In this document: piece after piece, positions 34,650 to 44,995 of the stretch | How the letters are laid out: every line of letters starts with the position of its first letter | How positions within the stretch are numbered: the stretch's first letter is position 1 | Origin: an uncultured Acidaminobacter sp. | Lineage (GTDB): Bacteria; Bacillota; Clostridia; Peptostreptococcales; Acidaminobacteraceae | Assembly: GCA_963665925.1 (NCBI GenBank) | Contig: OY762511.1 | Coordinates: 9,327-73,326 of the forward strand | Length of the DNA stretch: 64,000 nt | Reading direction: 5' to 3' | The notes under the pieces: generated by a model | The model's database searches: none | What the model saw: the letters and a program-made list of their open reading frames with translations, nothing else | What the model was told of the DNA's origin: nothing | Position numbers and translations under genes: made by a program

Positions 34650-36707
34650 TTAAAGTTTTGAAAAGACCAGCACCACCAACAGACTTACCACCAGCAGGCC
34701 TGCGACTATAAATAGGGCATAGGTTGCCGAAGAAGCCCGCTTATGGGCAATTCGCACAACATCGCTCACCTTTTTATCTGCATAATCCTGAATGTCCTTC
34801 TGCAGCTTCTTTTCTCCAGTCAATTTTGTCTTAAAGGGTTCAAGGTTGAAGCTGAGTTCATCATCGGTCTTGCCAAAAGGCACTTCCATAACAAATTTTG
34901 AAAAATCATAGCTGAACAGCTTGGTGATCTCAGCATTGCCAATCCTGCGGACCGTATGATGCAGGAACATGGCAAGGGCATAGACCCACCTGTCCACAAT
35001 GTGGAAGACGAAGTAGCCTATGGCATAGGTATAGCGGAGAACCGGTATATACAGGTTTTCTTCCAGCTGGAACCAGTGCGTTGTCGGGTTGATGTATATG
35101 CGCTTTTTGCCCATCTTTCGGTAAAGCACATTACGCACGAATACCAGGTAGAGGCTACCGCCGATTGCCAGTGTCTTCAGTGTTGACAGGAACGCATCGA
35201 GTACAAATACATTCGGTATATGATGCGCTACGGTACCGAAGCTATGCATAGCCTGCCCCACCATGTGCAGAACCGGCTGCGGGAAAATGCCGACCAATAT
35301 GATACAACTTCCGATGATAGCCATGGGAAAGAGTGCTCTCGCACTGATCTGGTCCTTATACTGACCGTAGTACTCCGAATTTTCCTCCATGAAGACAGTG
35401 ACAAATATCTTAAGCATATAAGCAACAGTCATGGCAGAGGCCACGTAAAAGACAATTTCTGCAATGGTGAAAAATGCGCTGTGCTCAATATGCGCCGCTT
35501 CAACCAAGGCTTCATGCAATATGGTCTTGCTCACAAACCCGTTGGTTCCGGGAATGCCACTCAGACCGAGCATGCCGATAAAGAACACCGTCTTAAGGAC
35601 ATATTTCTTACGCCCAAAGCCGCGAATGATATTGATGGAAAGTTCATGAAGCACCATGTAGATGATTCCTGCTCCCATAAAGAGCAGCACCTTGAAAAAT
35701 GCATGGTTGAACATGTGGAACAAGGTTCCCATAAGTGCAAGTTCCTTCACTTCCGACCCCAGGCACGCGAGTCCTATACCGAACAGGATGTACCCTGCCT
35801 GACTCATGCTGGAATAGGCCAGAATACGTTTGATATTTCTCTGGAAAAGTGCAAGGAAACCACCCAGTAGCATATTGACCATGGCAAGGCTCATCAGAAC
35901 ATAGCCAATTTTGATATCCGAACCCATGATAACATGCACCGTGATCAGTATTCCAAACAAACCCGTCTTGATTAGAATGCCGGAAAGAATTGCGCTGGCT
36001 GGTGTCGGTGCTGCCGGATGGGCCTGAGGCAACCAGACGTGCAGTGGAAACATTGCAGCCTTTACGCCAAAACCGGTAATCATGAGCCCTGCAATCAGGT
36101 ACTTGATTGAGCCCATTTTTGTTAGCCATACCCCAGCAGCTGTTATGTTGAGCGTACCGGTATAGTCGTATATGAGAAAAATGCCCAGAAGCATGATCAA
36201 TCCGCCTGCAATTGCCATACTAAGATAGGATACACCTGCACGGTGAGCAAATCTGTCCTCATCGTGTATGACAAGAATGTAGGATGTCAGCGACATCATC
36301 TCAAAAAAGGTAAACAGATTCAAAAGGTTCTCTGACAGAAACAGGCCGATTGTAGCTGAAAGTGTCAGCATGTAGAACATATAATATCGGTTTCTGTTTT
36401 CATATCGAATAAGATACTGCGTGCTGTATAGGGTTGTCAGAAACCATACGGCTGCGGTAAACCATATGAATATAAATCGAAGCATGTCCAGCTTCAAATA
36501 AAGACCTGTTCCGAGGACCTCCTCAAATGCAAGGTGCATTGTCTGCTCTGACACGATTGGATACATCATTGTTATCGCAACCAGTTCAAGTCCGGTAATT
36601 GCAATATTGAATACGTCACGGTCCTTCTCGTTGTCTTTTCCGATAATCGATCCGACTACCGCGCCAAAGGCTGGAATCAATACGAGCAGCAATAGTGCTA
36701 TTTCCAT
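34650..36707 (-). CDS. Mrp/NuoL/HyfB-type proton-translocating subunit, long form
   Basis: 685 aa; FFEMMS, GVKAAMFPLHVWLP, SAILSGILIKTG, LAYSSMSQ, GFVSK; C-terminal extension. Confidence 0.85.
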   Translation of the reverse strand: MEIALLLLVLIPAFGAVVGSIIGKDNEKDRDVFNIAITGLELVAITMMYPIVSEQTMHLAFEEVLGTGLYLKLDMLRFIFIWFTAAVWFLTTLYSTQYLIRYENRNRYYMFYMLTLSATIGLFLSENLLNLFTFFEMMSLTSYILVIHDEDRFAHRAGVSYLSMAIAGGLIMLLGIFLIYDYTGTLNITAAGVWLTKMGSIKYLIAGLMITGFGVKAAMFPLHVWLPQAHPAAPTPASAILSGILIKTGLFGILITVHVIMGSDIKIGYVLMSLAMVNMLLGGFLALFQRNIKRILAYSSMSQAGYILFGIGLACLGSEVKELALMGTLFHMFNHAFFKVLLFMGAGIIYMVLHELSINIIRGFGRKKYVLKTVFFIGMLGLSGIPGTNGFVSKTILHEALVEAAHIEHSAFFTIAEIVFYVASAMTVAYMLKIFVTVFMEENSEYYGQYKDQISARALFPMAIIGSCIILVGIFPQPVLHMVGQAMHSFGTVAHHIPNVFVLDAFLSTLKTLAIGGSLYLVFVRNVLYRKMGKKRIYINPTTHWFQLEENLYIPVLRYTYAIGYFVFHIVDRWVYALAMFLHHTVRRIGNAEITKLFSYDFSKFVMEVPFGKTDDELSFNLEPFKTKLTGEKKLQKDIQDYADKKVSDVVRIAHKRASSATYALFIVAGLLVVSLLVVLVFSKL

Positions 36708-36719
36708 AGGTTCACCTCC

Positions 36720-38180
36720 TTAGATAAAAATTTCTTTAAGTGCATATCGAATGTATCCGATGACTGGGTTTGGGAATATTCCCATGAGTATGATAAATCC
36801 TGTGATGATGATGATTGGAATCATCATGCCATTTGGCGGGTCAAGATTTTCCGCATCTGCTATGTCATCTGCAGTACGTGTGAAAAATGCACCCACAACA
36901 ATGGGAAGAAGATAGCCAGCAGTGAGAAAGGCACTGAGCAGAAGGACAAGTATGTTCATGACCTGTCCGGCGCCCATGGCACCCAGTCCAAGAAACCATT
37001 TGCTTACAAAGCCGTTTGAAGGCGGTATGCCAATCAGTGAGATAGAAGCTATAGCAAAACACATCATGGTCTTTGGCATTTTTCTGCCAATGCCGCCAAT
37101 CTCATGAATATACTTTTTACCTGTCATAAATGTAATCGATCCCACACAGAAGAAGAGGACGATTTTAATGATGGCATGATTGATCAGATGGATCATAGCC
37201 CCAAGGAGTGCATCTTCATTAAGCAGTACAATTCCAAGAAGCATATATCCAAGCTGACTAATGGTTGAATAGGCCAGACGTTTTTTCAAGTGAGACTGAT
37301 GCAGTGCCATAAACGACCCGAAAACGACCGTGAGCAAAACCATGGACAGCAGCAGTGCGTCAAGCTCCATAGAGGCTACCAGTTTAGGTCCGAATATGAA
37401 AAACACCATGCGAATCAGTGAGAATATGCCCGATTTTACAACAGCAACAGCGTGAAGCAATGCACTTACGGGCGTTGGTGCTACCATTGCGGCTGGAAGC
37501 CAGCTATGCAGGGGCACCAGAGCCGCCTTGACACCAAAGCCTACGAAAAGTGCTACAAAGGCTCCGGTCAACAGACCTTGCCGCTCATAAGCCATGAGAG
37601 CCGCAATGCCCCCTGGTGTGAATTCCAATGTTTGCACTGCACTGAATAGAATCATCATACCGAAGAGGATCAGTGTTGCCCCAAACAGAGAATAGATAAT
37701 GTATTTTTTCCCGCTTCGCAGAGCTTCCTGTGTTCCAGCATGAATAACCAGCGGAAACGTCGTCAAGGTCAATATTTCATAAAAGGCATACAGGGTAAAC
37801 AGATTCCCAGACAGGGCAATCCCCATTGTAATGCCTTCAGTTATAAGAAAGAAAATGTAGAAGTACCTGACACGGCCTTCGTGCTCCATATAAACACCTG
37901 CATATGCGGAAGCCAATATCCACAGCGTGGATGCCAGTGCCGCAAACACAAAGCCTATATGACCACCCTTCAAGGTCAGATCAATGAACTCGTTGACATG
38001 GAGTATGGATAACTTCACGCCATCAAATCTTGCGATAATATAAAAGACTGACGCCGCAGTCAGCGAAGTCGCAAAGATAGAAAACCGCATTAGCGACTCT
38101 TCTCTTATTAAGTTTTTTTGAGTTGCAAAGACTGACATGACCATTGGTATGAGTATGGGTAATAAGAGAATCCAGTTCAT
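36720..38180 (-). CDS. Mrp antiporter large subunit (MrpA/NuoL-like core)
   Basis: FYEILT, GVKAALVPLHSWLP, SALLHAVAVVKSG, LAYSTISQ. Confidence 0.88.
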   Translation of the reverse strand: MNWILLLPILIPMVMSVFATQKNLIREESLMRFSIFATSLTAASVFYIIARFDGVKLSILHVNEFIDLTLKGGHIGFVFAALASTLWILASAYAGVYMEHEGRVRYFYIFFLITEGITMGIALSGNLFTLYAFYEILTLTTFPLVIHAGTQEALRSGKKYIIYSLFGATLILFGMMILFSAVQTLEFTPGGIAALMAYERQGLLTGAFVALFVGFGVKAALVPLHSWLPAAMVAPTPVSALLHAVAVVKSGIFSLIRMVFFIFGPKLVASMELDALLLSMVLLTVVFGSFMALHQSHLKKRLAYSTISQLGYMLLGIVLLNEDALLGAMIHLINHAIIKIVLFFCVGSITFMTGKKYIHEIGGIGRKMPKTMMCFAIASISLIGIPPSNGFVSKWFLGLGAMGAGQVMNILVLLLSAFLTAGYLLPIVVGAFFTRTADDIADAENLDPPNGMMIPIIIITGFIILMGIFPNPVIGYIRYALKEIFI

Positions 38181-38195
38181 TCATTCCTCCAAAAT

Positions 38196-39641
38196 CTATA
38201 GAGCGCTTTCAATAGCTGTCAAAATATAGCCCGAGCCTATCCCCAGGAACACCAGAAGAAACAGCAATATTCCAAGCGCCTTTTGATTGACTTTGTTGCT
38301 GTTGACCGCAAGCGGCTTTTCATCTGAAAAGAATCCATTGATGGTTACTGGGAAATAATAGGCTGCATTGAGCACAGAACTGATGAGGATAACTGCCAGA
38401 GGTAGAATCTGCCCTGTTTCAATAGTCGCCAGTGCCAAATTCCACTTGCTGATGAAGCCTGGCAGAATCGGAATGCCTACCATGGAGAAGCCACACACTG
38501 TGAAAACGGTCATTTCAAATGGCATCACACGGCCTATTGACTTCAGGCTGGCAAGATCCTTGCGTCCCAGCTTATCTATAAATGCTGTTGCCGTTAGAAA
38601 CAGCAGTGATTTAGTAACCCCATGCCCAAGCATGTGATATACGGAAATAGCCATTCCTGCAGGGGTGCCGAGTCCTATACCGAAGAATACATAGCCCATC
38701 TGTGCAACACTTGAGTAAGCAATCATACGCTTGAGCTTTTTCTGCGAACGTGCAATCAACGATCCGACAATCATGCCTGTCCCACTCATGATAAGCAGAA
38801 TTTTGAGAATTGCTGCCTGATTGATCATTTCGTAGCCATAGACCAGAACACAGATTTTAAGAAAATAGACTGCAGGCGCTTTGATTACCAGACCAGAAAG
38901 AAGTGCGCTGGATGCTCCAGGTGCTGACGTATGCGCATCAGGCAGCCAAATATGCATGGGAAACAAAGCACTCTTAATTCCCGTTCCAGTCATGAACAGA
39001 ACCATACTGATCAAAATCATTTTTGACTTTTCAGAAGATATTTCCACAAGACTTTCATGGATATAGGTCATATCCAGATACCCGGTCAAAGCATACAGAT
39101 AGGCAATGCCCATGAGTACGAGCCCGGAACCCAGGCTGCTGAGTATAAGATATTTTACTGCAGCCTTGATATTATCCGGCTTGTTCTTCACAACAATGAT
39201 TCCACATGCTGCAAGTGTGCTTACCTCAATAAACACAAAACCGTTGAAAAGGTCCCTTGTATAAACTATACCCAGCAGTGAAGCAACCAAAAGGTGGACA
39301 AGAATCAAAAATGTCCGCTGCTGTTTTTCGCCGACTTCTCGGACAAACTGTTCAGAACTGAACCACACTACAAGTGCCGTCACAGTGGTAAACAGCACAC
39401 CTATTGCGATTTCAACAGAGCTGACACGCATGACAATGCCAAACGGCGCCTGTGCGTGCCCCACTTGGATTGCATAGGGTTCCTTTGCAAAATATAGAAA
39501 GGCATGCAGCCAGTTAAATAGGCCTATTAATGAAAAAGCCCCAAGACTGAGTCGCATGGGTTTTTTAGAAAAAGGCAATATGAATGAGATAATCAGTAAT
39601 GCCAGTATCGTTATTAACGGTGCCGCACTCATCAGGTTCAT
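38196..39641 (-). CDS. mnhD: Mrp antiporter subunit D
   Basis: FIEVST, GIKSALFPMHIWLPDAH, SALLSGLVIK, GFISKW. Confidence 0.85.
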   Translation of the reverse strand: MNLMSAAPLITILALLIISFILPFSKKPMRLSLGAFSLIGLFNWLHAFLYFAKEPYAIQVGHAQAPFGIVMRVSSVEIAIGVLFTTVTALVVWFSSEQFVREVGEKQQRTFLILVHLLVASLLGIVYTRDLFNGFVFIEVSTLAACGIIVVKNKPDNIKAAVKYLILSSLGSGLVLMGIAYLYALTGYLDMTYIHESLVEISSEKSKMILISMVLFMTGTGIKSALFPMHIWLPDAHTSAPGASSALLSGLVIKAPAVYFLKICVLVYGYEMINQAAILKILLIMSGTGMIVGSLIARSQKKLKRMIAYSSVAQMGYVFFGIGLGTPAGMAISVYHMLGHGVTKSLLFLTATAFIDKLGRKDLASLKSIGRVMPFEMTVFTVCGFSMVGIPILPGFISKWNLALATIETGQILPLAVILISSVLNAAYYFPVTINGFFSDEKPLAVNSNKVNQKALGILLFLLVFLGIGSGYILTAIESAL

Positions 39642-39997
39642 GCTTCGCCCTCCCTCATTCTCATAATTTCGTCCAGTTGCAATGTTCCATAAATACTGTG
39701 AAGACGTATTGTCAGTGCCAGCGAAAACGCAGTCATGCTTACCGCTACAACAATGCCCGTAAGCATGAGTCCCGATGGGATGGGATTCACGTAGTTCGCA
39801 ATACCAGCAGCCTTGATTGGCGCATGAGCGCCATCAATGTATCCTATGGAGATAAAATATAGAAATATGGACGTGTCCATGATGTTCAGTCCAATAATTT
39901 TCTTGATCAGATTATTGTGTATGAGCAATGTCGTGAATCCGATAGCGAAAAGAATAATGGATCCGACTTCAATGAAATCGCTCGTAAGAATATTCAT
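39638..39997 (-). CDS. mnhC: Mrp antiporter subunit C
   Basis: NLIKKIIGL, NPIPSGLMLTGIVV. Confidence 0.9.
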   Translation of the reverse strand: MNILTSDFIEVGSIILFAIGFTTLLIHNNLIKKIIGLNIMDTSIFLYFISIGYIDGAHAPIKAAGIANYVNPIPSGLMLTGIVVAVSMTAFSLALTIRLHSIYGTLQLDEIMRMREGEA

Positions 39998-40434
39998 TGC
40001 TTCTCCTCCACATTTTCCATGACGATGGGTTCATTAAATAGGTCAAATATCAGTACGAATGAAAACATGACAATTATGCCGATTAGGATGTTGAGTACGG
40101 GAATAACACCACCACTGACAAGACTTCCCTGCGTACCCTTTGGCCAGGTCACGAGATGGGTATGTGTAGCGCCTTCAAAAAAAGCAATCCCCTTGATGAG
40201 TCCATACCCCACCAGACTGAAGGATACGCCTTTCATGCAGACTGCTTTTGTAACAATTTGCGGACGCTTGCTCTCCGAATTTAGAAACCGCTCCAGAATG
40301 AGTCCTGTAGCCAGTATGCTGCCACCTGCAAAACCACCGCCTGGAGAAAGATGCCCAAAGACGGTTACATAGGCGCCAAAGATAAGGATGAAGGGTACAA
40401 TATTGCGTATGACGGTTTGTATGATGAGTGTCAT
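39994..40434 (-). CDS. mnhB: Mrp antiporter subunit B
   Basis: GHLSPGGGFAGG. Confidence 0.9.
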   Translation of the reverse strand: MTLIIQTVIRNIVPFILIFGAYVTVFGHLSPGGGFAGGSILATGLILERFLNSESKRPQIVTKAVCMKGVSFSLVGYGLIKGIAFFEGATHTHLVTWPKGTQGSLVSGGVIPVLNILIGIIVMFSFVLIFDLFNEPIVMENVEEKQ

Positions 40435-40709
40435 GTTATTGCACCACCCTTCAATACAGCAATTACAGAAATGACTGCTGTGAAAAATACGATTGATTCT
40501 ACAAAGGTGTCAAAAGCGCGATAATCAAGAATCATTCCAGACACCATATTCACGGCGCCTGTTTCAGCTGGACCTTCTTCAACGTACTTGACCATAACCT
40601 CGTTGTGCGCGGGGTTGTCCGGTCGTCCAAACTCTGGAAAGTCCGTCAGGCCATAGAGTAAAATCAAGGCGAGGCAAGCTGCTACGCCTATTGAAATAAA
40701 CTGCTTCAT
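40431..40709 (-). CDS. MbhE-like small subunit (split MrpA C-terminal part)
   Basis: NMVSGMILDYRAFDTFVE motif. Confidence 0.82.
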   Translation of the reverse strand: MKQFISIGVAACLALILLYGLTDFPEFGRPDNPAHNEVMVKYVEEGPAETGAVNMVSGMILDYRAFDTFVESIVFFTAVISVIAVLKGGAIT

Positions 40710-40945
40710 GCGCTGAGTCCCTTAATTTTTCTCAGTGTCAGCACAAATAGAACCGATGTTAAGCCTGCACCAACTGCAGCTTCCGTGATTGCAAGATCTG
40801 GAGCATTCATTTGCTGCCATAGAAGTGCCATCATCAGACTGTATACCATGAAAATGATTACTGCGCCAAGCAGATTCCTAATTGCGCTTGCAGCGACAGC
40901 ACCAATCATCATTACTACTAAAAGTACTATGTTAAACCATGTCAT
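40706..40945 (-). CDS. DUF4040/MbhD-like small subunit
   Basis: APDLAITEAAVGAG motif. Confidence 0.85.
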   Translation of the reverse strand: MTWFNIVLLVVMMIGAVAASAIRNLLGAVIIFMVYSLMMALLWQQMNAPDLAITEAAVGAGLTSVLFVLTLRKIKGLSA

Positions 40946-41235
40946 ATGCTTTCATCTCCTTTCGAGTTTCGCCAAATTGCTCTAGCAATCGCATGGGTCG
41001 CAGTTGGATTCGTTATCCAAAGGAATACAATTACCAGCAATAGCTTCAATGAAGCAAGTGTGTAACCTGTCTGTAAAATCAATCCTGTAAGGATGAGGAT
41101 TGCACCCAGCGTATCGCATTTTGCGGCACCATGGGCACGTGTCAGGGCATCGGGGAATCTGATGAGTCCCAGTGCACCTACAAAGAAAAAGAAAACGCCG
41201 CCAAACACAAGCAATGTTGAAATGGCATTAAACAT
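40942..41235 (-). CDS. mnhG: Mrp antiporter subunit G
   Basis: GLIRFPD..TRAHGAAKCDTLG, NPTATHAIA. Confidence 0.92.
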   Translation of the reverse strand: MFNAISTLLVFGGVFFFFVGALGLIRFPDALTRAHGAAKCDTLGAILILTGLILQTGYTLASLKLLLVIVFLWITNPTATHAIARAIWRNSKGDESI

Positions 41236-41512
41236 TCCCGCTGCCCCTTTCAGCGCGGCTTCTCTGATACAGCTCCTTAGCTATGAAGAGTGATGCCGTA
41301 AAACTGATTAGAGCGTATACAAGAACCACGTCGAAAAAGAACTTTTCTTTCAAAATCAATGAGATCACAGCCATGAGAACCAGTGTCTTGGTACCTATGA
41401 CATTGATGGAAATCAGTCTGTCTCCCTTAGTTGGTCCGACAACAGCGCGGTAAAGCGCCATAATAATTGTCAGTCCTATAAATGAGCATGCGATAATTAG
41501 ATTGTGTGTCAT
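41228..41512 (-). CDS. mnhF: Mrp antiporter subunit F
   Basis: RAVVGPTKGDRL, DVVLVYALISF; start at the ATG after GGAGG. Confidence 0.9.
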   Translation of the reverse strand: MTHNLIIACSFIGLTIIMALYRAVVGPTKGDRLISINVIGTKTLVLMAVISLILKEKFFFDVVLVYALISFTASLFIAKELYQRSRAERGSGNV

Positions 41513-41513
41513 T

Positions 41514-41987
41514 TTAAACCTCCTGAATTCGTAAAAGCGTTTTTTCAAACGCATTGCCAGTTAATGAATCCGCATATGCCTTGTTAAGACAATGAATCAC
41601 CAGCATCTCGCCCTCGATATCGACCGTCATCGTGCCCGGGGTCAATGTAATCGAATTCGCCAGAACGGTTTTCAGAAAATCTGATCGTATCGCTGTCTGA
41701 TACTCGACAATCTCCGGCCGTATGGGTAGACGCTTTGACAGCACAATGGCTGCCACCTGGAAGTTGGCTACCGCTATTGCTAAAAGGAGCTGGAGCACGA
41801 AGAGTATCCAAAGCGGCAAGGCTCTGATACACTTGGCTGCCGATGCGATTTTTAGCGATCCGCTCCAATATGTAAAAACAACTCCCGATATTATAAGTCC
41901 TGCAATCAGACTTGCTGGTGTAATACGTTCTGCAAGTACTGTCCAGAATGCAAGAAAAAGCATTATATAGATAAACCTACTTTTCAA
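41514..41987 (-). CDS. mnhE: Mrp antiporter subunit E
   Basis: LANSITLTPGTMTVD; TTG start after GGAGG. Confidence 0.92.
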   Translation of the reverse strand: MKSRFIYIMLFLAFWTVLAERITPASLIAGLIISGVVFTYWSGSLKIASAAKCIRALPLWILFVLQLLLAIAVANFQVAAIVLSKRLPIRPEIVEYQTAIRSDFLKTVLANSITLTPGTMTVDIEGEMLVIHCLNKAYADSLTGNAFEKTLLRIQEV

Positions 41988-42022
41988 CTGGGTACCTCCT
42001 GTGTGTGCCATAACTATATATA

Positions 42023-42039
42023 CGCAATATGTATGCCAA
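42023..42039 (-). promoter_or_regulatory. sigma54 (-24/-12) promoter of the Mrp-like operon
   Basis: Minus strand TTGGCATACATATTGCG: GG-N10-GC spacing, about 35 nt upstream of the mnhE start. Confidence 0.85.
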
Positions 42040-42155
42040 CTCTATCCATTTTTACTCCAAATGCTTACATCCCTTGAAAACACCTATCATAAAGATTTTT
42101 AAAGCTTAGAAACCCTTCATAATTCGTTATAATTTTCACGTATTTGCAGTGTATT

Positions 42156-42236
42156 TGTTTCATTTTGGTGCACATTAGCCTTTTTTGCCCAAAGTTAATG
42201 CCCCACAATGAAACATGTGTTTCATTGTGGGGCATT
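42156..42236. promoter_or_regulatory. three candidate EBP upstream activator sites; two form the EBP gene terminator hairpin
   Basis: TGC(A/C)CCA(A/C)AATGAAACA at 42156-42172 (rc), 42199-42215 and 42218-42234 (rc); 42197-42236 is a palindrome with 19-bp arms. Confidence 0.65.
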
Positions 42237-42259
42237 TCGTTGTTCATATTACCCTTAAA

Positions 42260-44254
42260 TCAGACTGTTAATCCGAACTTTTCAATTTTCCGGTATAAAG
42301 TCGTACGACCAATTCCCAGCGCCTTTGCAGCCTTGACCAGATTGCCGTCATGCGCTGCAATCGCAGCCTGTATGGCCTCCTGTTCAACCTTGGCCAACGG
42401 TTTTACTTCATAGCCCTTTTCCGCGACAGGTATATCATCCCGAACATTATTCTTCATGTACTCAGGCAAATGGCGTGCGGTCAGCACACTGCCATCACTC
42501 ACCAGGCTTGAAATGAGCTGCATGACATTCTGAAGCTCTCGCACATTTCCCGGCCAGCTGTATGAAGTCATGGCGTTGTAAAAGCTTTGCGTTATGTCGA
42601 CACCTGCGACGTTGGCACCTTTTCTGAACTGATTGTAGAAAAAGTCAATCAATATGGGCACATCACTTTTTCGCTCCCTAAGTGCAGGCGTGTGAATCGG
42701 CATGACATTGAGCCTGAAGTAGAGGTCCTGACGGAAGTTGCCCCGTTCCACCTCTTTTGCCAGATCCTTATGGGTCGCCGCTATGACACGTACATCCACA
42801 GGAATAACATCATGCCCTCCTACGCGGACGACTTCCTTTGTTTCAAGAACACGCAGGAGATTTGCCTGGGTATCGAGAGGCATATCGCCTATTTCATCAA
42901 GAAAGAGGGTTCCCCCGTCAGCCAACTCAAATTTTCCAGGTTGGCCGCCCTTACGCGCACCAGTGAATGCACCTTCCACATATCCGAAGAGTTCACTTGC
43001 GACAAGGTCACGTGGAATTGCACCACAGTTGATGAAGACAAATGGGTTCGACCGCCGCTGAGAGGTGTTATGAATGCTCTGTGCAAAAAGCTCCTTGCCC
43101 GTACCACTCTCTCCTGTTAGAAGGATGGTTGCCTCAGTGTCTGAAACCAGCTTTGCCAGCCTTATGGCTTCCTTGATTTCTTCACTTTCACCCAGTATGT
43201 CTTCGAAATTGTAAATTGCCTTGGCCCCGGTAAATCGGTTGACCAGATTGTGAATATCCTTGGCTTCTCTAAAGGTGAGAACAAGTTCCTTGAAGGGATC
43301 GTTGGGCTCAGAGATGGGTGTGGCATTTACAATAACGGATTTTTTCCTGCTTCCAGGTGCACCGAAATTGATTTCTTCCTCTTTAAGACGAGAACCTGAT
43401 TTAGCCAGCTTCAGGATTTTCCTGGCCTGATCACTCTGTATCACATCTCTGATATTACCCCCGATTGCCGCGGAGTCTCTGACCCTAAAGTACCTTCTTG
43501 CGAAAAGATTGATGTCTCGAATGATCCCCCGTTCATCAATACAAATGATGCCTTCCGAAATCGACTCCATGATTGCATTAAAGTGCTCATTTTTCCTTTT
43601 TAAGTCCTGATTGGACTTTTCAAGTTTGATTTCATGTTCAATGGCCAGGGCAGATGCCATAACCATGCCAAGGGTATGCGGATGTACAAGCTCGTAGTCC
43701 CCCGACATACTCAGCACTGCCACTAGATTGTCTTCCTCGTCTTTTATCGGCGCAGCTGAGGTTGTCCACCCGTGATAGTCCGCCCTATAATGCTCCGCCC
43801 CCAGAACTTGGAGGGGAATCCCCTTAGCGAGCGCGATTCCAATAGCATTTGTTCCAATAATCTCTTCCTTCACGTTTGTCCCCTTATAAAGGTGAAGGAC
43901 TTTGTGGCTTTCAAATACGAGTTCGTCCCCAAAGCATTCAAGAACATAACCGTCTTTGTCTGTCAGCCTGACTATCAGGCCAGCCTCTCCAACAGTTCTG
44001 TAGAGCGTATCCATGAAGGGCTTTGCTATATCAAGAACGGGTCCAAGGTCTTCGTAGCGCTTTTTTAAGGATGGCCCGTCAATTTCAATGTTGACCTCAG
44101 AAGAATGGGCATCGACTTCATAACGCCTGCTTCTGATCCATGAATCTGCAATGATTGGCCTGAGAACCTCTCTGTCCATTTTTCCTTCTTGAACGAATTC
44201 AAGCCAGGCTTTTTCAAAAAGTTCGTTCTCTTCCAGCATTCTTTTACCTGGCAT
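42260..44254 (-). CDS. sigma54-dependent enhancer-binding protein, GAF-PAS-AAA+-HTH (AcoR/DhaR type)
   Basis: SWIRS...GTNAIG GAF, GESGTGKE, GAFTGA, DEIGDM, WPGNVREL, Fis-type HTH GIGRTTLYRK. Confidence 0.95.
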   Translation of the reverse strand: MPGKRMLEENELFEKAWLEFVQEGKMDREVLRPIIADSWIRSRRYEVDAHSSEVNIEIDGPSLKKRYEDLGPVLDIAKPFMDTLYRTVGEAGLIVRLTDKDGYVLECFGDELVFESHKVLHLYKGTNVKEEIIGTNAIGIALAKGIPLQVLGAEHYRADYHGWTTSAAPIKDEEDNLVAVLSMSGDYELVHPHTLGMVMASALAIEHEIKLEKSNQDLKRKNEHFNAIMESISEGIICIDERGIIRDINLFARRYFRVRDSAAIGGNIRDVIQSDQARKILKLAKSGSRLKEEEINFGAPGSRKKSVIVNATPISEPNDPFKELVLTFREAKDIHNLVNRFTGAKAIYNFEDILGESEEIKEAIRLAKLVSDTEATILLTGESGTGKELFAQSIHNTSQRRSNPFVFINCGAIPRDLVASELFGYVEGAFTGARKGGQPGKFELADGGTLFLDEIGDMPLDTQANLLRVLETKEVVRVGGHDVIPVDVRVIAATHKDLAKEVERGNFRQDLYFRLNVMPIHTPALRERKSDVPILIDFFYNQFRKGANVAGVDITQSFYNAMTSYSWPGNVRELQNVMQLISSLVSDGSVLTARHLPEYMKNNVRDDIPVAEKGYEVKPLAKVEQEAIQAAIAAHDGNLVKAAKALGIGRTTLYRKIEKFGLTV

Positions 44255-44879
44255 CTTCTTCCCCCGATTCCTTCTCTATCTGAATATGAAAGCTTCGGCT
44301 AGCGCTAAAATTGCCGCTGCTGGCCTTGACAATCACCGTTATTTTAAACAGTCCCCGCTTATTCCGGTCGACCCCCAGATTGATGTTTTTTGAAGTCTTT
44401 GGCGCCAGATCTCCAATCTCTATGCTTCCATAAAAATCATTGTCCTTTTCAATCATGATTTCAATGCCGCGTGCACGGCGCGTACCCCTGTTATGGATGT
44501 ACACCTTATAATAGAGTTCCCGTTCACTGTCCTTCACCTTATAGCGCTTGAGCTTTCCAATCTGCAGCTCGACATTCCCCATCCATGTAAAATCTCGCAG
44601 TGCTTCCTGATGGGGCTCTGCACCAAGTCGCACGCCCACTGAGCTGAGCTCATCGCTTATATTATTTGTAAGAAGCATCTCCACTGTCTTCGCCTCTCCC
44701 GGATCAAGCCCAGGAAGCGTGACAGGGCGCGCAATATCCCCCATGATAATTTCTGCCGGAACCTTATTCACGCTCTCATCACCCGCGTTTTCATATTTAA
44801 AGAAAAACCGAACCTCCTGCTGCGTCATGAGCGGCTGTTCCGTTTCCGTGTAAAAATCAAGTGCTCTTATATCTTTCAT
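44244..44879 (-). CDS. hypothetical protein with two CARDB/Ig-like repeats
   Basis: ENAG...LPGLDPGEAKTV and HNRG...IGDLAPKTSKNI; no signal peptide; overlaps the EBP start. Confidence 0.6.
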   Translation of the reverse strand: MKDIRALDFYTETEQPLMTQQEVRFFFKYENAGDESVNKVPAEIIMGDIARPVTLPGLDPGEAKTVEMLLTNNISDELSSVGVRLGAEPHQEALRDFTWMGNVELQIGKLKRYKVKDSERELYYKVYIHNRGTRRARGIEIMIEKDNDFYGSIEIGDLAPKTSKNINLGVDRNKRGLFKITVIVKASSGNFSASRSFHIQIEKESGEEDAR

Positions 44880-44995
44880 ATTCTCACCTCAGCTAAAAGC
44901 AGGTCCATATGTTTCATTTCAATACACTTTTTCATTATAGCATAAATATGTAAATGCGGCGCGCGCACGATTCGTCTGGAAAAGAAGACAAAACG

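Follow-up and report, generated by a model that had tools for sequence, protein, structure and literature searches.

A predicted sigma-54 switch for an Mrp-type antiporter operon in Acidaminobacter and related Clostridia

Our analysis of a 64-kb stretch of the genome of an uncultured Acidaminobacter sp. points to a dedicated sigma-54 switch that controls an Mrp-type cation/proton antiporter operon, a reading to which we assign a probability of about 85% from the sequence evidence. The wiring is conserved across dozens of related Clostridia, and the switch is probably real. The stretch, called the window throughout, is part of a complete 4.85-Mb genome (G000:C1:9327-73326), and positions given without a prefix refer to it. 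Acidaminobacter belongs to the Peptostreptococcales within the Clostridia (NCBI taxonomy), and the nearest public relatives by activator identity are Acidaminobacter metagenome-assembled genomes (99% and 86%) and Fusibacter sp. JL216-2 (80%). The locus is encoded entirely on the minus strand: a gene for a CARDB-like protein is followed by the activator gene, a 248-nt gap and the ten Mrp genes, which extend to 34650.

Promoter, enhancer sites, activator and target operon

The predicted sigma-54 promoter, TTGGCAT-N5-TTGC (42024..42039, minus strand), carries GG at 42037-36 and GC at 42025-24, which is the canonical GG-N10-GC spacing. Set against the motif TGGCAC-N5-TTGCW it reads TTGGCAT-N5-TTGCG, with 36 nt from the GC to the TTG start codon of the operon, and transcription is predicted to start near 42012. 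The pattern TGGCAY-N5-TTGC occurs 89 times in the whole genome against about 15 expected, mostly 0-200 nt upstream of open reading frames (ORFs). This genomic promoter class shares an extension, TTGGCAY-N5-TTGCGTTATATA, that the mrp promoter carries too. Scored with a leave-one-out matrix trained on the genome's other 57 sites, the mrp promoter reaches 26.3 bits and ranks 38 among 9.7 million positions. The same genome encodes the cognate sigma factor, with an rpoN match (Sigma54_DBD, 9.2e-62) in a 476-aa frame. Its sigma-54 system is unusually large, comprising about 45 activator genes and some 60 promoters with the extended consensus.

Aligned with the relatives at 86% and 80%, the DNA has diverged around conserved islands formed by the promoter, the GGAGG ribosome-binding site and the TTG start; the promoter itself is exactly conserved in the Acidaminobacter and Fusibacter relatives, with its flanks diverged. 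The ribosome-binding site (AGGAGG, 42000-41995) and the probable TTG start of mrpE (41987-41985) together occupy 41985..42000 on the minus strand. GGAGG and TTGAAAA are kept in the related loci L033 and L034 (the latter from Fusibacter sp. JL216-2), and the ATG at 42011 is not. As conservation in these relatives covers the TTG and its ribosome-binding site only, mrpE most likely starts at the TTG at 41987 instead of the ATG at 42011 given in the ORF list, which coincides with the predicted transcript start.

Upstream of the -24 element, at a distance of 118-196 bp, lie three 17-bp dyads, all listed on the minus strand. Site 1 (TGCCCCACAATGAAACA, 42218..42234) is centered at about -214 and scores 16.8 bits; site 2 (TGTTTCATTGTGGGGCA, 42199..42215) is centered at about -195; and site 3 (TGCACCAAAATGAAACA, 42156..42172) is centered at about -152 and scores 19.6 bits. 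Sites 1 and 2 are 19 bp apart, and sites 2 and 3 are 43 bp apart. The consensus of the iterated matrix is TGTWTCAAAATGAWACA, that is, TGT-N11-ACA with the half-sites TGTTTC and GAAACA, which can also be written TGTWTC-N5-GAWACA. Between site 3 and the promoter, a box AAATACGTGAAAA (42145-42133, minus strand) is kept in the window, L033 and L034 and not in other families.

Across the genome, a score of 16 bits is reached by just 17 sites, and the only high-scoring triple cluster is the one at the mrp locus. Since the genome holds no other such cluster, the regulon is local. A weaker triple at genome position 2389802 was considered as a second target and rejected, as it belongs to a paralogous activator with GGAAC half-sites. 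Paralogous activators (in L109, in L110 and at G000:C1:2389802-2389934) have related dyads upstream of their own sigma-54 promoters, either TGTATCA-N3-TGATACA or with GGAAC-type half-sites; there are two dyads in L109 and L110, where the targets are zinc alcohol dehydrogenase genes, and three in the window's own genome.

The activator (42260..44254, minus strand) is a one-component protein of 664 aa in which profile, structure-homology and motif matches delineate a DhaR-like, GAF-like sensor, a PAS domain (1.4e-11), an AAA+ domain and an HTH_8 domain (6.9e-15, residues 620-660). The AAA+ domain matches PF00158 (Sigma54_activat, 1.3e-70, residues 353-521), the AAA lid is matched as well, and the key motifs are intact: Walker A GESGTGKE at 381, GAFTGA at 428 and Walker B LFLDEI at 450. 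By its domains, its motifs, its HTH and the sigma-54 of its host, the protein is a bacterial enhancer-binding protein, and ATP-dependent activation is predicted. The solved structure of the DhaR sensor, 4lrx, aligns with residues 29-301 (E 9e-16). The label "GAF" derives from this homology to DhaR, since no Pfam GAF model matches the sensor. The best full-length profile is DhaR (NF008485), at 398 bits over residues 23-663 versus an equivalog cut-off of 551, and PrdR (NF041552) scores 420 bits over residues 212-660 versus a cut-off of 795. With both scores under the cut-offs and no dha or prd genes adjacent, the activator does not qualify as an equivalog of either protein.

The target operon (34650..41987, minus strand) consists of ten genes in the Mbh order, as assigned by Pfam and NCBIfam matches: MnhE, MrpF, MnhG, MbhD, MbhE, MnhB, the 4L-like MnhC and three antiporter-like subunits of 481, 486 and 685 aa. 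The Pfam matches are MNHE, MrpF_PhaF, PhaG_MnhG_YufB, MbhD, MbhE, MnhB, Oxidored_q2 and Proton_antipo_M; the last of these matches one of the three large subunits, and the NCBIfam D/A models match all three. The operon contains no redox module and is flanked by genes for a MarR-like regulator and ABC transporters. In subunit content and operon structure, it is an Mrp-type multisubunit cation/proton antiporter operon, with exchange activity predicted.

The same genome has a second, smaller Mrp-like cluster outside the window (G000:C1:2610003-2614232, L111), which comprises E, G, an MbhD-like subunit, B, C and a single 532-aa antiporter-like subunit. There is no activator gene adjacent to it (the nearest is 16 kb away) and no match to the sigma-54 promoter pattern nearby. 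A redox module for this cluster was rejected because the genes upstream are unrelated and include no redox genes.

Conservation of the pairing across Clostridia

A sensor-domain search of 301 genomes of the order separated activator orthologues, at 40-68% identity and E below about 1e-50, from paralogues with E of about 1e-30 to 1e-45, and a further sample of 399 genomes of the class added orthologues in three families outside the order. The locus set drawn from these searches comprises 39 activator orthologues with their flanks, at 46-86% identity, from several families and at least two orders of Clostridia, with L033 and L034 among them. A full Mbh-ordered Mrp operon lies directly downstream of the activator gene in 35 of the 39 loci, and a sigma-54 promoter is found 180-290 bp past the activator stop codon in 38 of them (L107 has a TGGCT variant). 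Three dyads precede the promoter in 32 loci and two dyads in six. The spacing between sites 1 and 2 is 19 bp in 27 of the 29 loci measured, that between sites 2 and 3 is mostly 42-45 bp, and site 3 stands 110-180 bp from the promoter. The site matrix finds 67 sites in the 5.7 kb of intergenic sequence of these loci, versus 11 in the other 325 kb.

These comparisons bear directly on an earlier note on this DNA, which had proposed that sigma-54 and an AcoR/DhaR-type activator control the Mrp operon, and had suggested checking synteny and promoter conservation across genomes. Conservation in 35 to 38 of the 39 loci strongly supports the proposed control. The elements it had named are found where it placed them: a correctly spaced -24/-12 promoter before mnhE, three related 17-bp sites about 117-195 bp upstream, and an adjacent, intact activator with GAFTGA. 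Its GAF-PAS description of the input domains also holds, with the GAF-like part defined through DhaR as set out above.

The gene tree and the co-occurrence of the two partners agree with the synteny. The activators linked to Mrp operons form one clade of 40 with support of 100/99, in which the loci with swapped targets are nested and from which the paralogues linked to alcohol dehydrogenase genes are excluded. More distant relatives of the activator (L035-L040, at most 43% identity) were considered, and none of them adjoins an Mrp operon. Among the 301 genomes of the order, about 59 have both the activator and an orthologue of the Mrp D2 subunit, three or four have the Mrp orthologue without the activator and four the reverse; two incomplete and two fragmented assemblies make up about half of these exceptions. 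Where the activator and D2 are on one contig, they are 6-7 kb apart.

In three loci the Mrp target is replaced by other membrane proteins, not by enzymes. In L116 the switch precedes only two antiporter-like subunits of 516 and 608 aa (L116:3239-6644), and in L118 (9116-9739) and L119 (4057-4680), which come from two genomes of a single genus, the Mrp operon is replaced by a 207-aa membrane protein that combines PsiE-like and CorC_HlyC domains. In both of these genomes the activator keeps its promoter and three dyads, and a search for orthologues of Mrp subunit D2 found none. The genome of L116 has a D2 orthologue on another contig, presumably in an Mrp operon. The locus of L073 is rearranged.

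When all ORFs flanking 23 of the loci were clustered, conservation extended only to the activator and the Mrp genes and to no partner enzyme; DUF1256, a diacylglycerol-kinase-like protein and an aminotransferase recur as neighbors of the module. In Fusibacter sp. JL216-2 an IS66-family transposase gene of 533 aa (L034:10262-11863) lies on the opposite strand between mnhB and mnhC, and this insertion may split or polarize the orthologous Mrp operon in that strain.

Hairpin, autoregulation and the signal

Sites 1 and 2 together form a hairpin (42197..42236, minus strand) with a stem of 17-18 bp and a 4-nt loop (-33.4 kcal/mol, z = -7.2). In Fusibacter the changes in the outer stem are compensating, and the two changes in L033 produce G-U pairing on the sense strand; both observations argue for a role of the hairpin in RNA. 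Two layouts occur among the loci. In the first, that of the window's family and L090 (f10), the hairpin of sites 1 and 2 is strong (-25 to -44 kcal/mol) and there is no separate terminator; in the second, that of most other loci, the hairpin is weak and a canonical stem with a T-run lies between site 3 and the promoter. Both layouts keep the 17-bp sites, and the strong hairpin and the separate terminator alternate between them; the simplest reading is therefore that in the window's family enhancer sites 1 and 2 probably double as the terminator of the activator transcript.

It is conceivable, though we consider it very improbable, that there is no working sigma-54 switch at all, and that mrp is transcribed by read-through or from an unrecognized sigma-A promoter, with the palindrome serving only as a terminator. 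The terminator-like form of the hairpin and its RNA-compatible stem changes would suit such an account. Two points do weigh against a sigma-54 switch. The bare 15-nt -24/-12 pattern has 3 matches in the 64-kb window versus 1.2 expected, which is not significant in one window. Further, the hairpin lacks a good U-tract on the sense strand in this genome, so that a degree of read-through out of the activator gene could express mrp independently of sigma-54. However, the sites and their spacing persist where no hairpin forms and a canonical terminator stands downstream of site 3, and the promoter is kept in several families in addition to its high genome-wide rank. Moreover, the sense strand between the activator gene and mrp showed no sigma-70-like promoter.

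The activator gene is preceded by the gene for the CARDB-like protein (211 aa; 44244..44879, minus strand; Pfam CARDB, 2.2e-8), the end of which overlaps the activator start by 11 nt, an arrangement that suggests translational coupling of the two. The protein looks cytoplasmic and could be an accessory regulator. A candidate extended -10 promoter of this two-gene operon (TGcTATAAT, 44934..44942, minus strand) has no -35 hexamer. A fourth dyad (TGTATTGAAATGAAACA, 44910..44926, minus strand; 17.5 bits) starts 7 nt past the extended -10, upstream of the CARDB-like gene. As it covers the predicted transcript start, it most likely serves as an operator for autorepression by the activator. A TGnTATAAT or TAAAAT element followed by an operator dyad is kept in L033, L034 and L075, at the same place as here in L033 and L034 and directly before the activator gene in L075.

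From these elements we infer how the switch may work. The activator would bind as dimers to the three 17-bp dyads upstream of the transcript start, and three dimers would supply the six subunits of the active AAA+ ring. Upon a signal at the sensor, the ring would contact the sigma-54 holoenzyme at the mrp promoter by DNA looping and use ATP to open it, with transcription of the ten-gene operon starting at the predicted site. The activator itself would be made, together with the small CARDB-like protein, from its own extended -10 promoter of the sigma-A type, and would repress itself through the fourth dyad. The hairpin of sites 1 and 2 would end the activator transcript and insulate mrp from read-through.

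The nature of the signal is the weakest part of our account. We lean, tentatively and slightly, toward an ionic, pH or energy-state cue over an organic metabolite, since all conserved targets are membrane proteins, almost exclusively antiporter subunits, and the module is not accompanied by any pathway enzyme. One observation speaks against an ionic cue. The conserved sensor residues (E130, GTNA 134-137, E154/H155, H161, H191 and H193) include histidines and glutamates that are common to the paralogues linked to alcohol dehydrogenase genes, so that the sequence gives no pointer to an ionic ligand. The structure model of the sensor, built from five sequences, has low confidence (pLDDT 58.6), and a fold search with it gives 4lrx as the top match (3e-20), a weak corroboration of the homology. 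The conserved residues were considered as a clue to the ligand and rejected as such: they also occur in paralogues linked to other genes and are family-wide, not specific to the Mrp clade.

The same switch could instead respond to an organic metabolite (an alcohol, aldehyde, ketone or acid), so that Mrp is induced with the fermentation state or with solvent stress, and we regard this as a plausible second choice. The nearest paralogous activators, at 40-42% identity, have similar dyads and sigma-54 promoters before zinc alcohol dehydrogenase genes, and share the conserved sensor residues. Clostridial relatives of like architecture, namely AcoR, AdhR, SadR and BldR, control alcohol or acetoin genes (PMC6615313). 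On the other hand, the 39 loci share no enzyme or pathway gene next to the module, the replaced targets are not enzymes, and the genome has no second enhancer cluster of the same type. The earlier note had favored a metabolite-inducible complex tied to a fermentation or to solvent or aldehyde stress, and had suggested a scan for further sites to reveal a partner enzyme. The genomic context lends this proposal no support: exact-palindrome and site-matrix scans find no other triple cluster of the same type in the genome. An organic ligand keeps its place in our ranking because of the alcohol dehydrogenase genes downstream of the nearest paralogues.

An activator switched by a protein partner, as E. 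coli DhaR is by DhaK and DhaL, seems improbable to us. The sensor is homologous to the N-terminal domain of DhaR that was crystallized with DhaK and DhaL (4lrx/4lry/4lrz), which is also its best fold match. In this genus, the partner would be the CARDB-like protein, whose gene overlaps the activator start and is conserved there. Nevertheless, that gene is seen only in the window, L033 and L034 (three of the 39 loci) and in the near-identical L032, and no other partner gene is conserved across the clade.

It is tempting to speculate further along the lines of the ionic cue, although we doubt that the whole of the following picture holds. The activator might itself sense sodium, pH or some other ionic or energetic cue directly in the cytoplasm, and the locus might be a one-component sigma-54 switch for ion homeostasis by which anaerobes that ferment amino acids tune a complex-I-like antiporter. 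A sharp threshold might then result from the enhancer with its three dimers, the autorepression and the enhancer/terminator hairpin acting together.

Relation to known systems

Descriptions of clostridial sigma-54 regulons have up to now centered on fermentation and amino-acid catabolism (PMC6615313), and the locus described here would add an ion-transport target to them. AcoR-acoABCL, AdhR-adhA, SadR and BldR are one-component sigma-54 (SigL) regulons of clostridia and Bacillus (Nie et al. 2019, PMC6615313). The activator resembles the AcoR/AdhR type in having an N-terminal sensor, a PAS domain, an AAA+ domain with GAFTGA and a Fis-type HTH, and in being encoded beside a single target operon with a -24/-12 promoter and palindromic upstream sites. 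It differs in having a ten-gene ion antiporter as its target instead of an enzyme of catabolism or fermentation, and in that the Mrp-linked activators form a clade of their own. In the text and the available supplement, no Mrp target is given for any of the 39 clostridial activator groups of that study (PMC6615313). Likewise, antiporters are not mentioned in a 2025 cross-phylum survey of sigma-54 regulons (PMC12316311, with supplements) and a study of C. difficile rpoN (PMC12069270). The earlier note had not recognized the regulatory pairing as described, and we also found no description of a sigma-54 activator paired with Mrp by keyword search of a literature that leaves most subscription journals outside its scope. 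The switch is of familiar design, with a target class for which we found no description.

The antiporter itself resembles the stand-alone Mrp of Pyrococcus furiosus and the membrane arms of Mbh and Mbs (PMC8415708), with E-F-G, MbhD, MbhE, MnhB, C and antiporter-like subunits and no redox module. Unlike the P. furiosus Mrp, it is encoded by a bacterial operon with three large antiporter-like subunits, and its gene order differs from the A-G order of the canonical Bacillus Mrp. Control by sigma-54 or an activator is not mentioned in the abstract of that paper (PMC8415708). Little is known of the regulation or purpose of Mrp antiporters in anaerobic fermenters. One dedicated sensor-activator travels with the Mrp operon in about one fifth of the sampled Peptostreptococcales, and in other Clostridia, and its ligand would directly reveal the condition that calls for a complex-I-like ion exchanger.

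The likeness to E. coli DhaR lies in the best full-length profile (NF008485) and in the sensor, for which 4lrx is the only solved homologue. DhaR acts at a sigma-70 promoter, is switched by DhaK and DhaL, and activates the dihydroxyacetone kinase operon. Unlike the DhaR locus, the locus here has no dhaKLM genes nearby, and it has both a sigma-54 promoter and GAFTGA.

A further parallel is E. coli NorR, the one-component activator of norVW, which has a GAF sensor and needs three upstream dyad sites to form the active oligomer. The signal of NorR is nitric oxide, sensed through iron, and its target is a detoxifying reductase. The activator described here resembles NorR only in its AAA+ and HTH parts (313 bits, residues 347-663). 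By analogy, the three-site layout matches the logic of NorR, and it offers a compact, well-defined enhancer for the study of activator hexamer assembly.

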